Assembly (NCBI GenBank): GCA_019752595.1
Contig: JAIELV010000001.1
Coordinates: forward strand, 120,486-184,485
Direction of reading: 5' to 3'
DNA from: Patescibacteria group bacterium
GTDB lineage: Bacteria; Patescibacteriota; Minisyncoccia; Phycocordibacterales; Phycocordibacteraceae
Length of the DNA: 64,000 nt
The position numbers and the translations under genes were made by a program. This document shows, one piece after another, positions 2,974 through 36,719 of the stretch. Position 1 is the first letter of the stretch; the number at the start of each line of letters is the position of its first letter. A model generated the notes under the pieces. It saw only the letters and a list, made by a program, of their open reading frames with translations, was not told the origin of the DNA and did not search any database.

Positions 2974-3099
2974 CTATTTTCTTCTCTTTTTACTCGCTTT
3001 TGCTGCAAGCATTGCCTTCTTTGCGGCAAGGCGTTTTGCGGTTTTGTGCGGTTTTTTGTACCACTTTAATGAGCTGACGCCGTGGCTGTTATTTCCCAT
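2974..3099 (-). CDS. Small basic protein, 41 aa (not in ORF track)
   Basis: Hand translation MGNNSHGVSSLKWYKKPHKTAKRLAAKKAMLAAKASKKRRK; ends at the shared hairpin near 2945-2967. Confidence 0.6.
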   Translation of the reverse strand: MGNNSHGVSSLKWYKKPHKTAKRLAAKKAMLAAKASKKRRK

Positions 3100-3133: not shown

Positions 3134-3241
3134 CTACCCGCGGAGCATTTAAGGAAAATACATCGCCCTCTTTAGGGCGTTTTGTATTTTCTTAAATGCG
3201 AACGCGGGCAAGCCTGTGCAAGTAACAGGCGCTCAAGCGGA
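3134..3241 (+). repeat. 108-bp inverted copy of the tRNA-Asn 3' end plus downstream hairpin (partner 5868-5975)
   Basis: Reverse complement of 5868-5975 with 2 mismatches by eye. Confidence 0.95.
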
Positions 3242-3330
3242 ACATGGACTCGTCGCGACCGCGGGAACCTGGTTCCGTAGGAATCCAGGTTACAAACTGA
3301 ATGCCTCTACGGACATGCCTCGTGTAGGTT

Positions 3331-3849
3331 TTATGTCCTTTGTGACGCTCGGGCAAGATATTCTGAAAGCGCGATACCAATGGCAGCAAGGACAAACAGC
3401 ACATGGATACCGACAACAAACATGATTTCGGTTGTCGGAAGGCTACCTTCCAAGTACGTCTTGAGTGCATGAACTCCTGAGATAGAAATTATTGCAAATC
3501 CAAGCTTGAGTTTCAGGTTGTAGGTATTCACATGGTCCAACCAATCGGGCTTCGAAATAGTCTTTCCTTCAAAGTGGTCATTCGTCACGAACAGTGAAAA
3601 TCCTGCGAGCGCCACGACCCACACGAGCTGAGCAACCATGGTTATGTCTACCAGTTCTAAAACTTTAATGATGAGATCTATCTTCGCAATCTCTTGGCCG
3701 AGCACGGAGGTGATGAGGTAGGGGATCTCCGAAAGGAACCTCCAAAGAATCGCCACCAGAATGACAACCAGTCCCATGTAGAAAAAGGACATCAGAAAGC
3801 GCATCTTAAAAAGCATCCCTCCAATGAATTCAAGTGCAGATTTTTCCAT
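3331..3849 (-). CDS. YqhA/UPF0114 family membrane protein
   Basis: VLELVDITMVAQL, PDWL, LKLKL..IISISGVHALK..L motifs. Confidence 0.85.
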   Translation of the reverse strand: MEKSALEFIGGMLFKMRFLMSFFYMGLVVILVAILWRFLSEIPYLITSVLGQEIAKIDLIIKVLELVDITMVAQLVWVVALAGFSLFVTNDHFEGKTISKPDWLDHVNTYNLKLKLGFAIISISGVHALKTYLEGSLPTTEIMFVVGIHVLFVLAAIGIALSEYLARASQRT

Positions 3850-3965
3850 AGTGTTATGCATGCTACAGGTAACCAAAAGAACTGGCAATCTTTAAGTTTC
3901 TAATTCGCCAAAGACGAATACCTAAGGGTTTCCTGCGCCCGCATTTTGCGCTATAGATAGATCAT

Positions 3966-4385
3966 ATGGCGAGTATTGAGGTATTTAAAGCGCTGGTAGG
4001 AGAGGCAGTAGAAGACATGAAGAAGCTGCCCCCGCCGCTTGTGCGTATCGCAGGCCCGCTGAGGACAGGTGGTGATGGGTACGAGACGAATTTGCAGCGT
4101 TTGAAGCAGGGGGAAGCACTTCTCCGAAGTCGCGGGCTTACTGTTTTTGGCTATACAGGAAAATACGCAGATGCTATCAAAGCAGCGTACGACTTACATT
4201 TCGAACATTTTCATATTCCTATTCTTAAGACGGGCCTCATTCAGTCAATCTTTTTTCTTCCCAAGTGGGAGGAGAGTAGGGGTGCTGCTTATGAACGGCA
4301 ACTGTGCACCGAGCTCGGGGTTTCGATAGGCGACATTAGTTATGAAGAACTTTCTGTATTTGAATCGGAATCTCGGGGTTCATAG
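3966..4385 (+). CDS. DUF4406-like / nucleoside deoxyribosyltransferase-fold protein
   Basis: IAGP...N...L..RG..VF; FFLPKWEESRGAAYER. Confidence 0.65.
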   Translation: MASIEVFKALVGEAVEDMKKLPPPLVRIAGPLRTGGDGYETNLQRLKQGEALLRSRGLTVFGYTGKYADAIKAAYDLHFEHFHIPILKTGLIQSIFFLPKWEESRGAAYERQLCTELGVSIGDISYEELSVFESESRGS

Positions 4386-4494
4386 GAAATTAAATCTTTC
4401 ATTTCCGTCTGCTGGAGGACTTTGTTTCTTTGAGAGCGAAGCGAACTAGGAAACAAGAACTGCTCGCGTGGTACGAAGTTAGGGCATCTTTTAT

Positions 4495-5265
4495 CTATCC
4501 TTTAGCTAGCATACGTGCTGTTGGGATTGCGTCCAGCACGTTGGGTCGAGTCTGGGCGGCTTTATAAAATGCCTTAGACTCTCTAGAATATCTATACAGC
4601 GCACCACGAGAGACTCGAGGCCAATGTTGGCGGTAGTAATTTATCATTTGCTCATCTGTCATTGAGGTCCAATTTTTTTTGACGCGAATGATTGCAGCGA
4701 GAACTTCTGGGCGCTTGTAGGCGACTTCATAAAATGTACAGGACTCATTTGAAAGAATTTGCAACTTACCGCGTGAGACTCCAGGCCAATGTCTATTGTA
4801 GTGCTCAATCATCTGCTGGTCAGTCATCGAAGTCCAGTCTGTTCGAGCGCGCTCGATAGCGTCGAAAACGCCTGGTCTCCGCGAAGCAGCTTGATAGAAA
4901 GCGTTTGCAGCCCTCGAAACTGAAGGGAGCTTCCCTCGAGATATACCGGACCATTCAGCGCGGTAGTATGCCAACATTTCTTCGTCGGTCATCGACTCCC
5001 AATCATTTAAGGCGCGAGGAATCACCTCAAGGACTCGCGGCCTCCTATATGCAGCTCTGTAGAAAGATTCCGCCTCCCGTGAAAGTTTTTGAAGGCGGCC
5101 TCTCGTGACTCCTGGCCAATGTTTATTGTAGTAAGCAATCATCTTTCTGTCGTTCAACAAATACCATCTTGCGCGTTCATGCGCGATTTGCTCACTAATT
5201 TTAAGTGCAGGATTGGTCGCTTGTTGGTCGCTCTCTACATGTAAAAGCTCTTTACGAGTCATCAT
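4495..5265 (-). CDS. Hypothetical protein with four ~55-aa tandem repeats
   Basis: W.SMTD..MI.YY..HWPGVSRG.L...S.E...FY..A..RP.V..AI repeated four times. Confidence 0.8.
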   Translation of the reverse strand: MMTRKELLHVESDQQATNPALKISEQIAHERARWYLLNDRKMIAYYNKHWPGVTRGRLQKLSREAESFYRAAYRRPRVLEVIPRALNDWESMTDEEMLAYYRAEWSGISRGKLPSVSRAANAFYQAASRRPGVFDAIERARTDWTSMTDQQMIEHYNRHWPGVSRGKLQILSNESCTFYEVAYKRPEVLAAIIRVKKNWTSMTDEQMINYYRQHWPRVSRGALYRYSRESKAFYKAAQTRPNVLDAIPTARMLAKG

Positions 5266-5344
5266 CTCAAACTAACAGGAATCGCGTGCATAGTCATCTT
5301 GAATGCCTTTAGAGTGCACGCGTTTGTTCTCTGGGTATTATCGT

Positions 5345-5415
5345 CCCGCGAGCGCAGGTTATAAAAATAATAGCGTCACAAGGACGCTTTATTTTCTGTA
5401 ACTGCTCCGCGGGTA
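5345..5415 (-). repeat. Diverged tRNA-Asn 3'-end hairpin site
   Basis: Minus strand TACCCGCGGAGCA + long stem-loop + TGCGCTCGCGGG. Confidence 0.8.
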
Positions 5416-5452
5416 ACTAGGGTTTTCGGCGCTCGCGGTGAAGAAAATTTAC

Positions 5453-5821
5453 TCAATCACCTCTAGTCTGGAGGTCAGATAGCGAGTATGGAATTGGTTT
5501 ACTTTCACCAGGAATCACAACGTAGCGAATGTTGCTATTGTTTCCTACGGACTCTACGACTCCTTTTTGGTTAAAAAATACACTCGCGCGCTTTTGTATC
5601 AGCACTTCAGTTCCAGGTGAGAATGGGACATCATCCTTCTTTTTGTATTTTCTGTCTCTTGGTTTCCAAATACCGTTTTCGTAGTTATTCAATGTTACTG
5701 CCAGGCTCCTCGTAGATCTATTTAGTTTTTTCGCAATATCCGATATCTGTGCCCCCTGCACTTTTTCTAGTAGGGCGCCCTGTATTTCAGATTCTGTGTA
5801 AAATCGTTTTTCCCGCGGCAT
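5453..5821 (-). CDS. HTH plus KOW/SH3-like hypothetical protein
   Basis: GAQISDIAKKLNRSTRSL helix-turn-helix; FSPGTEVLI...FNQKGVV. Confidence 0.6.
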   Translation of the reverse strand: MPREKRFYTESEIQGALLEKVQGAQISDIAKKLNRSTRSLAVTLNNYENGIWKPRDRKYKKKDDVPFSPGTEVLIQKRASVFFNQKGVVESVGNNSNIRYVVIPGESKPIPYSLSDLQTRGD

Positions 5822-5963
5822 CCACAGCACTTTACATTCTTGAATAATATCGTGCAAATGACTTTACTCCGCTTGAGCGCCTGTTGCTTGCACAGGCTTT
5901 CCCGCGTTCGCATTTAAGAAAATACAAAACGCCCTAAAGAGGGCGATGTATTTTCCTTAAATG

Positions 5964-6227
5964 CTCCGCGGGTAGGACTCGAACCTACAACCAACTCCTT
6001 ACACTGATTCCCAGAGTTTCCTAAGGGCGTGGACTATATCACGACCGGTTCTCGGTCTTTCGGTATCTAGTCTCTACGGCGCTCGGAACGTAAAAACGTT
6101 CCGTTCCCTCGGTGTTAGCGTAGCCGAAGCGTTAGCGTTCACCGATATCCCGAAATTTTCGATACGGATTCCTCCGTAAAGCTGCCTATGCTGACAGGGA
6201 GCTGCTCTACCATTGAGCTACCGCGGA
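5964..6227 (-). tRNA. tRNA-Asn(GTT) interrupted by a group I intron
   Basis: Exon 1 6227-6194 TCCGCGGTAGCTCAATGGTAGAGCAGCTCCCTGT; exon 2 6001-5964 TAAGGAGTTGGTTGTAGGTTCGAGTCCTACCCGCGGAG; spliced anticodon loop CUGUUAA. Confidence 0.93.
6002..6193 (-). ncRNA. Group I intron (192 nt, no ORF) within the anticodon
   Basis: 5' exon ends in U and intron ends in G; P1 CUGU|C pairs with GGCAG with a U.G wobble; R/S-like GAGACTAGA and GATATAGTCC. Confidence 0.9.
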
Positions 6228-8462: not shown

Positions 8463-9254
8463 ATGAAAATACTTCTTTGGGTTGGGGTAGCGCTCTGCCT
8501 CGCGCTTGGCGGAGTAGGTTTGTTTTTTACTTTTTCAGAAGATATCCCAGAGACGTACCAAGAACCAGTCCTCACGAATCAGCAGACACATGTAACCGCA
8601 GAAGAGCCTCAAGCAGTAATTCCAGAATCTAAAAAAAGCACAGTAACGTATACGCGGCTCAGTACCTACGTTGATTCGGTAAAAAGAAACTTGGGAGTGC
8701 TTATACGCTACGAAGCATTTCCCGTGTGCGATTCCGTTTCCACGAAAGAAGTCTTTTCCGTAGAAACAGGGGACGGGCAAACGTACCCTGCTGATTGTAA
8801 TGGGGTTGTCGAACATACCTACAAAACACGAGGAACCTATACTGCTCGTTATCTAAGAAACGGCACGTCGGTAGCCTCTGTTGCTGTGGATGTTACAAAA
8901 GCGTTGGATGCACCTCCGCAGGTTCCTAGTGTAGAACCAAAGGAAAATCCGCCAGGGTCTTTGATATATGCGGACTTTTGGAATGCCGCCTCCAAAGGCA
9001 CGACGCTTGAGAAATACGTGTGGGGAGCTTCAGGAGACGATGATTACTACGACGGCGGAGAGGGAATTGATACGCTTCAGTATTTTGGTACGCGCGCGGA
9101 ACATGAAATAGTGCGTAGCCCACTAAGCCCCGCAGGTGCGAATAGTTTTCTTCTGATTCGTAGGATACGCGACAATTCTATGGATATCGTCCTGAATATT
9201 GAGATATTCGTGTTTGCAGATCAGGTAGTGAAAGCAGAAGACCTGTTCAAATAA
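8463..9254 (+). CDS. Membrane-anchored surface protein with PKD-like and RTX-like motifs
   Basis: N-terminal TM; GDGQ...HTY..RGTYTA; GASGDDDYYDGGEGIDT...NIEIFVFAD. Confidence 0.7.
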   Translation: MKILLWVGVALCLALGGVGLFFTFSEDIPETYQEPVLTNQQTHVTAEEPQAVIPESKKSTVTYTRLSTYVDSVKRNLGVLIRYEAFPVCDSVSTKEVFSVETGDGQTYPADCNGVVEHTYKTRGTYTARYLRNGTSVASVAVDVTKALDAPPQVPSVEPKENPPGSLIYADFWNAASKGTTLEKYVWGASGDDDYYDGGEGIDTLQYFGTRAEHEIVRSPLSPAGANSFLLIRRIRDNSMDIVLNIEIFVFADQVVKAEDLFK

Positions 9255-9288
9255 AAAACCGCCCTTCGACAAGCTCAGGGCGGTTTTT
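9253..9288. terminator. REP-like terminator, copy 1
   Basis: AAAAAACCGCCCTTCGACAAGCTCAGGGCGGTTTTT; identical at 10990-11025. Confidence 0.85.
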
Positions 9289-10989: not shown

Positions 10990-11025
10990 AAAAAACCGCC
11001 CTTCGACAAGCTCAGGGCGGTTTTT
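10990..11025. terminator. REP-like terminator, copy 2
   Basis: Identical to 9253-9288. Confidence 0.85.
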
Positions 11026-36439: not shown

Positions 36440-36511
36440 GGCCCTATCGTCTAACGGTTAGGACATCGCCTTCTCAAGGCGGTAATCGGGGTTCGATTCC
36501 CCGTGGGGTCA
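36440..36511 (+). tRNA. tRNA-Glu(CTC)
   Basis: GGCCCTATCGTCTAACGGTTAGGACATCGCC-TTCTCAA-GGCGGTAATCGGGGTTCGATTCCCCGTGGGGTCA cloverleaf. Confidence 0.95.
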
Positions 36512-36695
36512 TGCCGTAAAGAAACGCGCCTGTTCATCAGGCGTCTTTCTTTATGGCATTATGATCGCCTGAAGGCGAGAATCGAAAGACGGAGCGAGCG
36601 TGGCGAGTGAGTCGGGGTCGAGGGCACTTAGTATTTTACGAGCGCTAGGAGTAAAATACTTAGTGAACCGTGACCGATTCCCCGTGGGGTCACCA
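36512..36695 (+). mobile_element. Miniature insertion at the tRNA-Glu 3' end, bounded by an 18-bp direct repeat
   Basis: CGATTCCCCGTGGGGTCA at 36494-36511 and 36675-36692; the second copy is followed by CCA. Confidence 0.75.
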
Positions 36696-36719
36696 CGTAG
36701 AAATAGCGATTGCGAAAAA

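Follow-up and report, generated by a model that had tools for sequence, protein, structure and literature searches.

Gene-less hairpin modules matched to tRNAs, and genes probably stacked by large serine recombinases, behind a tRNA-Asn gene of a Patescibacteria genome

Introduction

Small accessory genes alternate with hairpins behind a tRNA-Asn gene of Patescibacteria group bacterium (assembly GCA_019752595.1; 903 kb in 3 contigs, 47% GC, 43 tRNA calls), which raises the question of whether the hairpins were the sites at which these genes were captured. The locus lies in a stretch of 64,000 nucleotides of contig JAIELV010000001.1 (positions 120,486 to 184,485), called the window here, whose own numbering is used below. 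A first-pass annotation had read four sites, S1 to S4, as an attC-like cassette array anchored on the tRNA and served by a recombinase in trans. We favor, with moderate confidence, a joint reading in which S1, S2, and S4 are gene-less modules matched to tRNAs, and in which the genes between them were likely stacked at the tRNA-Asn 3' end by elements of large serine recombinases (LSRs). G000 denotes the present genome, other G numbers denote related genomes, L numbers denote the loci or stretches compared, and X numbers denote sequencing runs. The tRNA and the sites behind it are as follows.

6227-5964, minus strand: tRNA-Asn(GTT), with 5' exon 6227-6194, intron 6193-6002 (192 nt), and 3' exon 6001-5964
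5868..5974, minus strand: S1, gene-less hairpin module on the tRNA-Asn 3' end
5416..5448, minus strand: eroded right end of an S1-type module (complementary arm, spacer, TTAC), running into the S2 core; 82% over 39 nt to L079, E 1e-4
5329..5415, minus strand: S2, second module type, away from the tRNA (hairpin 5345-5415; decayed terminal TAC and core at about 5329-5338)
4418..4474, plus strand: S3, member of a separate dispersed small repeat, no copy of S1 or S2
3242..3295, plus strand: remains of a further module that is stacked behind S4 and has GGTTAC at its end; weak fold, z -1.9
3134..3241, plus strand: S4, inverted S1 copy, joined at TAC in the promoter region of a small basic gene

Two landmarks of the tRNA recur below, namely TAC (bases 63-65, at 5974-5972) and GA (bases 71-72, at 5966-5965).

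A Gene-Less Module on the tRNA-Asn 3' End

The hairpin that uses the 3' end of tRNA-Asn as its base proved to be real. With the tRNA end included, S1 folded at -27.1 kcal/mol (DNA parameters; z -7.9), and equal stability was reached in 0 of 200 shuffles. The description of a second site with the same ends and a different interior was also borne out by S2 (-22.0 kcal/mol, z -6.6). S1 consists of a core, a terminator-like inner hairpin, a bulged complementary arm (to 5901), a small second hairpin, and a variant next core (5878-5868). The TCAA at its end was considered as an IS608 right end and dropped, being better read as a decayed TAC plus the variant core.

We found that the general form is a module of about 80-110 bp without genes, which runs from TAC through the tRNA acceptor strand, a hairpin, a complementary arm, and TTAC to a second acceptor copy. 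In relatives, units are stacked. Each begins with a tRNA-end core and an A/T-armed hairpin; these are followed by the complementary arm, in which a GA(A/C) bulge is fixed, and then, after a short spacer, by TTAC and another core. AAAG or CAAG is often found ahead of a small hairpin with TTAC at its end. Among 16 Asn-type copies, both sides change in 14 of the 25 consensus pairs. When copies at tRNA-Asn, tRNA-Lys, and tRNA-Pro were taken together, both sides changed in 4 of 6 core pairs, and 98.8% of the cells paired, as against 37-53% in slid controls, with the caveat that the structure itself was derived from the same alignment. The spacer from arm to core measured 10-13 nt in 16 of 22 copies and 21-27 nt in the other 6, and a fixed two-fold geometry of the module ends was ruled out by these variable spacers.

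The module is gained and lost between relatives. Of 57 loci, 9 have it directly on tRNA-Asn, and tandem stacking was also seen; for these counts genome loci were chosen by tRNA match only, and 6 of 24 metagenome stretches (L063, L064, L066, L067, L068, and L078) together with L060, in which modules are absent by anatomy, were excluded before counting. S1 has matches at 82-100% in G003, G014, G020, and L079, and S1-type modules lie directly on the tRNA in G003 and G014. Since modules 92% identical to S2 sit directly on the tRNA end in G004, G012, and G022, S2 was likely displaced from the tRNA in the present genome. No Rfam 15 family matched the module at E up to 1 (one chance match appeared at E 5 in three loci), and a pattern scan of viral contigs returned 0 matches.

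Modules at Other tRNAs

A covariance model of the sites, the comparison that the first-pass annotation had proposed for the genome and its relatives, recovered S1, S2, and S4 and left S3 unmatched. In the present genome, the strong matches of this model (R1) were limited to S1 and S2, which are both training members, and S4. In relatives, R1 had additional antisense matches at tRNA-Lys and tRNA-Pro, at the 5' end of the gene. A second model, R2, built with these added 5'-end copies, had matches in 35 of 61 family genomes, and in the present genome it located modules at the 5' ends of tRNA-Lys, Phe, Pro, Leu, and Glu (E < 2e-4) and Arg (E 0.03), again antisense.

These copies are matched to the tRNAs beside which they lie. 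The arm pairs with its own tRNA (at least 6 of 7 bases) at 13 of 17 non-Asn tRNAs, compared with 9% of cross pairings, and the end copy of the module matches its own tRNA acceptor strand in 11 of 17 cases, compared with 11% in cross controls; the latter count is a floor because the parser misplaced several ends (e.g., G000 Pro, L165, and L169). The module end still reads TAC where the tRNA reads CAC or GAC. In 5'-end modules, TAC is complementary to tRNA bases 7-9. The T-stem has TAC at its end in tRNA-Asn and in one tRNA-Pro (L182), and therefore the module is sense at the 3' end there. Among 16 5'-end copies, the scaffold strand folded better than the tRNA strand in 13 (RNA parameters) and in 15 (DNA parameters). 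Considering that the scaffold follows the TAC-plus-acceptor word instead of the direction of transcription, and that its own strand folds better, we infer that the gene-less module is a DNA-level element.

Some further observations concern modules at tRNA genes. A weak R2 match (E 0.05) with module anatomy lies at G000:C1:787739-787821, where ARAGORN called no tRNA. A second, longer module type (80-175 nt) occurs behind nine tRNA 3' ends of G000:C1, namely those of Glu (twice), Gln, Trp, Lys, Asp, Met, Arg, and His; it folds back to pair with the T-arm and closes with a direct repeat of the tRNA end, and the tRNA-Glu example is at about 36440-36700 of the window. This longer type is stacked with the short module at tRNA-Asn in G017, G043, and G008.

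Serine Recombinase Junctions and Gene Rows in Relatives

The downstream regions of tRNA-Asn were compared in 42 of the 61 loci fetched, chosen by tRNA match and at least 2 kb of downstream sequence; L056 and L058 were removed from the junction scans as duplicates. An LSR gene ends on tRNA-Asn, antisense to it, in 8 of the 42 loci, and the LSRs end there in LRG-stop. Moreover, a 24-nt junction arm before GGAGC occurs at the far end of units in 13 of the 42 loci, 10 of which have no LSR. The junction is directional, with 19 forward and 0 reverse matches in 573 kb. In the LSR frame the arm reads as an open tail, LR(W/L)LD(E)VRT, with early stops in 3 of 37, as against 16 and 21 in the other frames. 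The junction is therefore tied to the LSR, yet this coding confounds a second property of the arm, in which the T-loop word GTTC lies 5 bp further out than in the tRNA while TCC is in place.

Rows of units with one to a few genes were found in L111, L123, L099, L081, L084, and L065, and because relatives hold such rows of small recombinase-less units at tRNA-Asn, a recombinase outside the unit is the natural reading. The order in L079 is tRNA, LSR, cargo, junction with an S2-type module, a gene, and an eroded junction with a hairpin identical to S1 over 69 nt. Since the junction precedes a complete hairpin module in L079 and L039, the module appears there as a part that was pushed aside.

As to the position of the crossover, bases 71-72 of the tRNA are the starting point of three mirrored LSR ends (in G001 at Asn and in G000 at Tyr and Ser), and several right arms contain an AGGA word that puts the center at the same GA. 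The LSR genes at tRNA-Tyr, tRNA-Ser, and the tRNA-Asn of G001 are each bracketed by an inverted tRNA-proximal end (148, 134, and 93 bp) from bases 71-72; these islands are at G000:C1 356.7-361.2 kb and 440.3-442.1 kb and in L051.

The LSRs at tRNA-Asn are 22-68% identical and fall into two deep branches (tree of 14 rows, 8 of them abutting tRNA-Asn, with L052, L079, and L114 left out). The best NCBIfam matches were SCC Ccr recombinases, far below the cut-off, and an LSR query against viral contigs returned 1 partial relative and no circular junction. The present genome has two full-length LSRs, none of them at the tRNA-Asn locus. Its LSR at tRNA-Tyr is 61% identical to the LSR at tRNA-Asn in G001, which suggests that the genome may have an enzyme able to act in trans. 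A further LSR-type recombinase domain, the third, lies in a 293-aa open frame (G000:C1:549181-549450); it had no match in the resolvase search and is perhaps a split or broken LSR.

Gene Content and Strain Variation at the Locus

The statement that the window holds no recombinase stood: none was found among the open reading frames scanned at the locus, and the genome-wide family searches, which covered the rest of the window, placed none in it. The genes and the remaining features up to the far boundary are as follows.

5453..5857, minus strand: accessory gene for a helix-turn-helix (HTH) protein; HTH_23 weak (E 0.003), with the KOW/SH3-like second domain being a label of the first-pass annotation only
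4495..5265, minus strand: accessory gene for a 256-aa protein with four repeats of about 55 aa
4402..4428, minus strand: possible eroded LSR junction, inner half only, borderline; the plus strand reads FRLLED, like the LSR tail
3966..4385, plus strand: DUF4406-like protein (weak, E 0.001), with 70-71% identical homologs in the tRNA-Asn regions of G019 and G022
3331..3888, minus strand: YqhA/UPF0114 membrane protein (E 2e-24), with homologs (32-33% identical) in the corresponding position in G017 and G043
2974..3099, minus strand: conserved gene for a 41-aa basic protein, the upstream region of which is the far boundary of the variable patch

The genes had been described as lying singly between the sites. 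Their identities agreed with this list, and the interval from S3 to S4 holds two genes in opposite orientations.

Gene content behind tRNA-Asn differs widely, at least among the genus loci listed. The comparison between strains, which the first-pass annotation had proposed, was based on four runs that were all available as contigs, and it gave the same picture at close range. Runs with shares under 0.1 were left out, and X1 may be the run from which the present sequence came. X5, a near strain from another study (e.g., 9 differences over 1219 nt), has a contig that joins 3904 to 5402 and in which 222 other bases replace 3905-5401. This contig keeps the HTH gene beside S1 and is without the S2 interior, the repeat gene, S3, and the DUF4406 gene, so that two of the four genes are gone. 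Because the break at 5402 falls inside the S2 core, S2 bounds variable DNA. With the present queries, the repeat protein was not found in 350 other genomes of the order and the HTH protein was not found in 300; in the Atlas, the former had 0 matches and the latter had only HTH leads under 0.9. These observations support the view that the locus is a tRNA-anchored, strain-variable gene patch. Thus, the part of the first-pass annotation that spoke of gene capture at the tRNA with a recombinase in trans agrees in part with this variable patch and with the recombinase-less rows of relatives, and the part that made the hairpins the recombination sites of cassettes is not supported.

Within the window, the candidate at 4402-4428 scored 13.7 with a 5-seed matrix (8 of 1.66 million genome positions exceed 13) and 8.5, at rank 42, with the refined matrix. 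The upstream side of S3 was also considered as an LSR junction and rejected (score 8.3, with 129 genome positions exceeding 8), and a candidate site at about 3915-3945 was discarded, having no significant match.

Two rows in relatives deserve mention. In G019 (L036/L131), tRNA-Asn is oriented away from its cassette row, and the genes that follow it are found upstream of it in G000, as if the tRNA had been flipped relative to its flanks. In G017, the row includes a DNA methyltransferase-like gene and a likely restriction gene (L046:4016-6377; labels by reading the sequence), and its closing element is a 26-nt tRNA fragment, T-arm included, which is longer than the repeats of the module or of the LSR junction.

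The Sites S3 and S4

The third and fourth sites did not fit the original array. S3 forms no comparable hairpin (z +1.3 and +1.2 on its two strands) and gave no match to the covariance model of the hairpins at E up to 10, even without filters. Its interior belongs to a dispersed small repeat with four further copies in the genome, one behind tRNA-Gly, one beside the tRNA-Tyr island, and two at other places. A homolog of S3 in L115 (E 6e-13) is part of a different type of tRNA module and adjoins an inverted copy of a tRNA end; this likely accounts for the resemblance of S3 to the core.

S4 had been taken as a fourth site of the array and turned out to be an inverted 108-nt copy of 5868-5975 (98%, 2 differences). 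We considered an assembly artefact and rejected it: the X1 contig breaks at 3163/3179 and 5930 fit two real copies, both ends of S4 are also covered in X5, and an inverted module is found at this position in G017, G042, and G043 as well. Since the whole stretch is spanned by no listed contig, the evidence for how the interior is oriented comes from the X5 contig 5402-5974 and the gene order in G017. S4 is joined at a TAC just upstream of the conserved 41-aa gene. Among 15 genomes or loci readable at this site, the module is present in 5 (G000, G017, G042, G043, and G006, with three interiors), a core in the opposite direction is present in 1 (G009), and 9 are empty; G022, cut by a contig end, was excluded. 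In G017, G042, and G043, one base is altered in both cores and compensated in the arm.

Mechanism and Alternative Explanations

On the joint reading, the module, whose closing stem is matched to the acceptor strand of the neighboring tRNA, would likely insert just after TAC. LSR elements, with a predicted crossover at tRNA bases 71-72, would stack genes there and push resident modules away from the tRNA. Because no junction in the window passes the threshold, the route of the four genes is read from the relatives: they would have arrived by way of LSR elements whose junctions here have eroded, and the LSR would have acted in trans or been lost later. S4 may be a module copy at a secondary TAC, which was then kept alike or was made recently. 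For the movement of the module, our own lead is that it inserts as a single strand, with the complementary arm paired to the target.

Some results weigh against this account. The window has no LSR junction above the threshold, and the second break of X5 (3904) is at no recognised site. The loci used to train the junction matrix overlap with those on which junctions were counted (leave-one-out 23-36 bits). The left-arm matrix finds no mirror image in the right arms (mean scores about -30), the shifts at the mirrored LSR ends are 4, 4, and 6, and the 5-bp shift of the arm is confounded by protein coding. At the S4 site, the AAAC after the inverted stack of G000 mismatches the arm, contrary to strict pairing-guided insertion, and the break in homology may mark only a conserved promoter box. 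Furthermore, the genomes compared are related, and counts from them are not independent.

A more specific form of the module hypothesis is tentative. S1, S2, and S4 could belong to an undescribed family of single-strand mobile modules of 80-110 bases, which pick their target by pairing of a 6-7-base arm with the tRNA acceptor strand, enter after TAC, supply the displaced strand, and are retargeted by a few base changes; at tRNA-Asn they would share the site with a gene-capture array of LSRs that read the universal T-loop and act in trans on several tRNAs. Alternatively, the modules might have no enzyme of their own and be folded elements of the terminator or processing type, kept by selection at tRNA ends, spread by recombination or gene conversion between short cores, and adjusted in their arms by compensatory mutation, with S4 as a chance inverted duplication. 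This explanation would account for the strong covariation and for the mere two differences between S1 and S4, as conversion would give. It also agrees with the inner hairpins of S1, S2, and S4, which are terminator-like on both strands (6 found; 3.5 ± 2.1 in shuffles), and an effect at the RNA level is possible since S1 can break the acceptor stem in unconstrained folding (-78.1 kcal/mol, vs -60.1 kcal/mol with the stem enforced). We nevertheless consider it unlikely. The scaffold is sense at 3' ends (Asn and one Pro) but antisense at 5' ends, where it is the scaffold strand that folds better, and the module is found on tRNA-Asn in a minority of loci, forms stacks, has a fixed TAC end, and occurs at one non-tRNA site.

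The attC-like model, in which the hairpins are single-strand sites of single-gene cassettes moved by a tyrosine or HUH enzyme in trans, is improbable, and its integron form is mostly refuted. S1 and S2 do resemble attC sites as imperfect hairpins in which bulge and ends, including unpaired bases, are fixed while the interior is free and the spacer variable; gene content varies at the sites between strains, with the X5 break in the S2 core, and the HTH gene lies between a core and the right end of a module. However, attC sites end in the boxes RYYYAAC and GTTRRRY, and neither box was found on either strand of S1-S4. The IntI model TIGR02249 scored 121.5 bits in the genome against a cut-off of 265 and exceeded the cut-off in 0 of 33 genus genomes, and the sole tyrosine recombinase of the genome is Xer-like. 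One orientation and one site per gene were not observed either, S4 being inverted and S3 unrelated. The hairpins are not cassette recombination sites because the module occurs gene-less at many tRNA 5' ends and because units in relatives end in an LSR-derived junction before the hairpin. Recognition of the hairpins by HUH enzymes may still apply to the gene-less module only; the two Y1 (RAYT-like HUH) genes are flanked by other palindromes, and their best likeness to S1 is a 22-nt A-rich sequence. Finally, the modules might be shrunken LSR elements or mirrored spare ends as at the tRNA-Tyr and tRNA-Ser islands, with S1 and S4 as a pair of this kind that has lost its LSR. In keeping with this idea, three tRNAs of the genome (Asn, Tyr, and Ser) are accompanied by inverted copies (108, 148, and 134 bp) at distances of 1.4-4 kb, two of which flank LSRs, and all junctions share GGAGC. 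The idea is very doubtful for reasons of geometry. The mirrors at Tyr, Ser, and G001 begin at bases 71-72 behind an LSR-type arm, whereas what precedes S4 is a promoter region, and its start is at TAC, 8 bases earlier. The ends of modules vary in their spacers and contain no junction word, LSR geometry is missing from the 5'-end copies, and a bare module end is the first far junction in none of L039, L079, L113, L117, and L119.

Each of the two HUH genes (L004, at G000:C1:590987-591682, and L005) has its own palindrome family, and that of the first has about 15 or more dispersed copies.

Comparison with Known Systems

Integrons and integrase-less attC arrays are directional rows of small genes with entry at one end and bulged hairpins of free interior. 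The gene rows at tRNA-Asn are similarly directional, hold small accessory genes, have their entry at one end, and are accompanied by bulged hairpins with free interiors; they differ in having no IntI and no R boxes, in hairpins that are mostly gene-less and tRNA-matched, and in serine recombinase junctions. Small imperfect hairpins are also known from REP and PATE elements. The module likewise has small imperfect hairpins, AAAG or CAAG, and TTAC in common with the ends of IS608 and the IS200/IS605 family, a likeness that is suggestive only. According to the part of the account compared, IS608 integrates on the 3' side of TTAC, has a preference for C as the next base, and is guided by AAAG (PMC5934647). 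In contrast, the word order of the module differs from the left end of IS608 as given in that part, and a target-matched repeat of 7-12 nt flanks the module; its AAG may be just the stem partner of CTT, so that a guide role is not separable from stem pairing. The HUH genes here also differ from IS200/IS605 in being flanked by other hairpins.

The closest parallel to the gene rows may be the ssrA islands of Dehalococcoides with DsiB, tandem islands behind a structured RNA gene (PMC3146451, in the sections compared). In both systems, an LSR of about 540 aa lies on the reverse strand with its 3' end overlapping the attachment site, and islands without an integration module stand in the same row. 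Yet the target here is the tRNA acceptor stem at bases 71-72 instead of the tmRNA T-loop, the core is about 5 nt instead of 20, the units often have one gene and no six-gene module was seen, and the LSRs are divergent, as described above. As in the att sites of phage serine integrases (LI/A118; PMC3783163, as far as the portion consulted reports), an outer word is shifted 5 bp between the element and host arms (attP/attB) and an inner word is in place; unlike those sites, the predicted right arms here do not mirror the left-arm matrix, and the element arm also codes for the recombinase tail. In tycheposons and stacked tRNA islands, newer elements likewise push older ones from the tRNA and leave partial tRNA copies, but they mostly have tyrosine integrases and multi-gene elements, and no hairpin module is described in the part compared (10.1101/2020.12.28.424599). 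Neither the gene-less module nor an LSR gene row was found described in Patescibacteria in the literature searched, subscription papers and supplements lying outside the search. The gene-less module is possibly the new part, and the gene row would work like ssrA islands and stacked tRNA islands.

These bacteria with small genomes, in which IntI exceeded the cut-off in 0 of 33 genus genomes, still keep a directional, strain-variable gene row at tRNA-Asn, and the junction motif, the crossover position, and the candidate enzymes make integron-like gene intake by serine recombinases testable. That one tRNA position is used by very different LSRs, and different tRNAs by close LSR relatives, bears on how integrases change targets. 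If target choice by pairing were true, the module would be a natural reprogrammable insertion element of less than 110 bases. The present locus alone is an eroded example and a smaller gain, but it has both systems at one site and a strain-level difference.

Other Features

The 192-nt intron of tRNA-Asn sits after the second anticodon base, follows U, and ends in G, and it is backed by intron-less joints across that gene in run contigs. It is likely a group I intron, and Rfam returned 0 matches for it; 21 classes of tRNA introns of this kind have been reported (10.1101/2020.01.27.920355, in the part seen). The tRNA-Glu gene was the sole ARAGORN call in the window, and the tRNA-Asn gene was labelled Thr once introns were allowed.

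The lysine-rich 41-aa protein (2974-3099, minus strand) has no Pfam match and is 68-98% conserved across the genus loci compared. Elsewhere in the window, identical 36-nt terminator-like palindromes occur at 9253-9288 and 10990-11025, with 1.7 kb between them.

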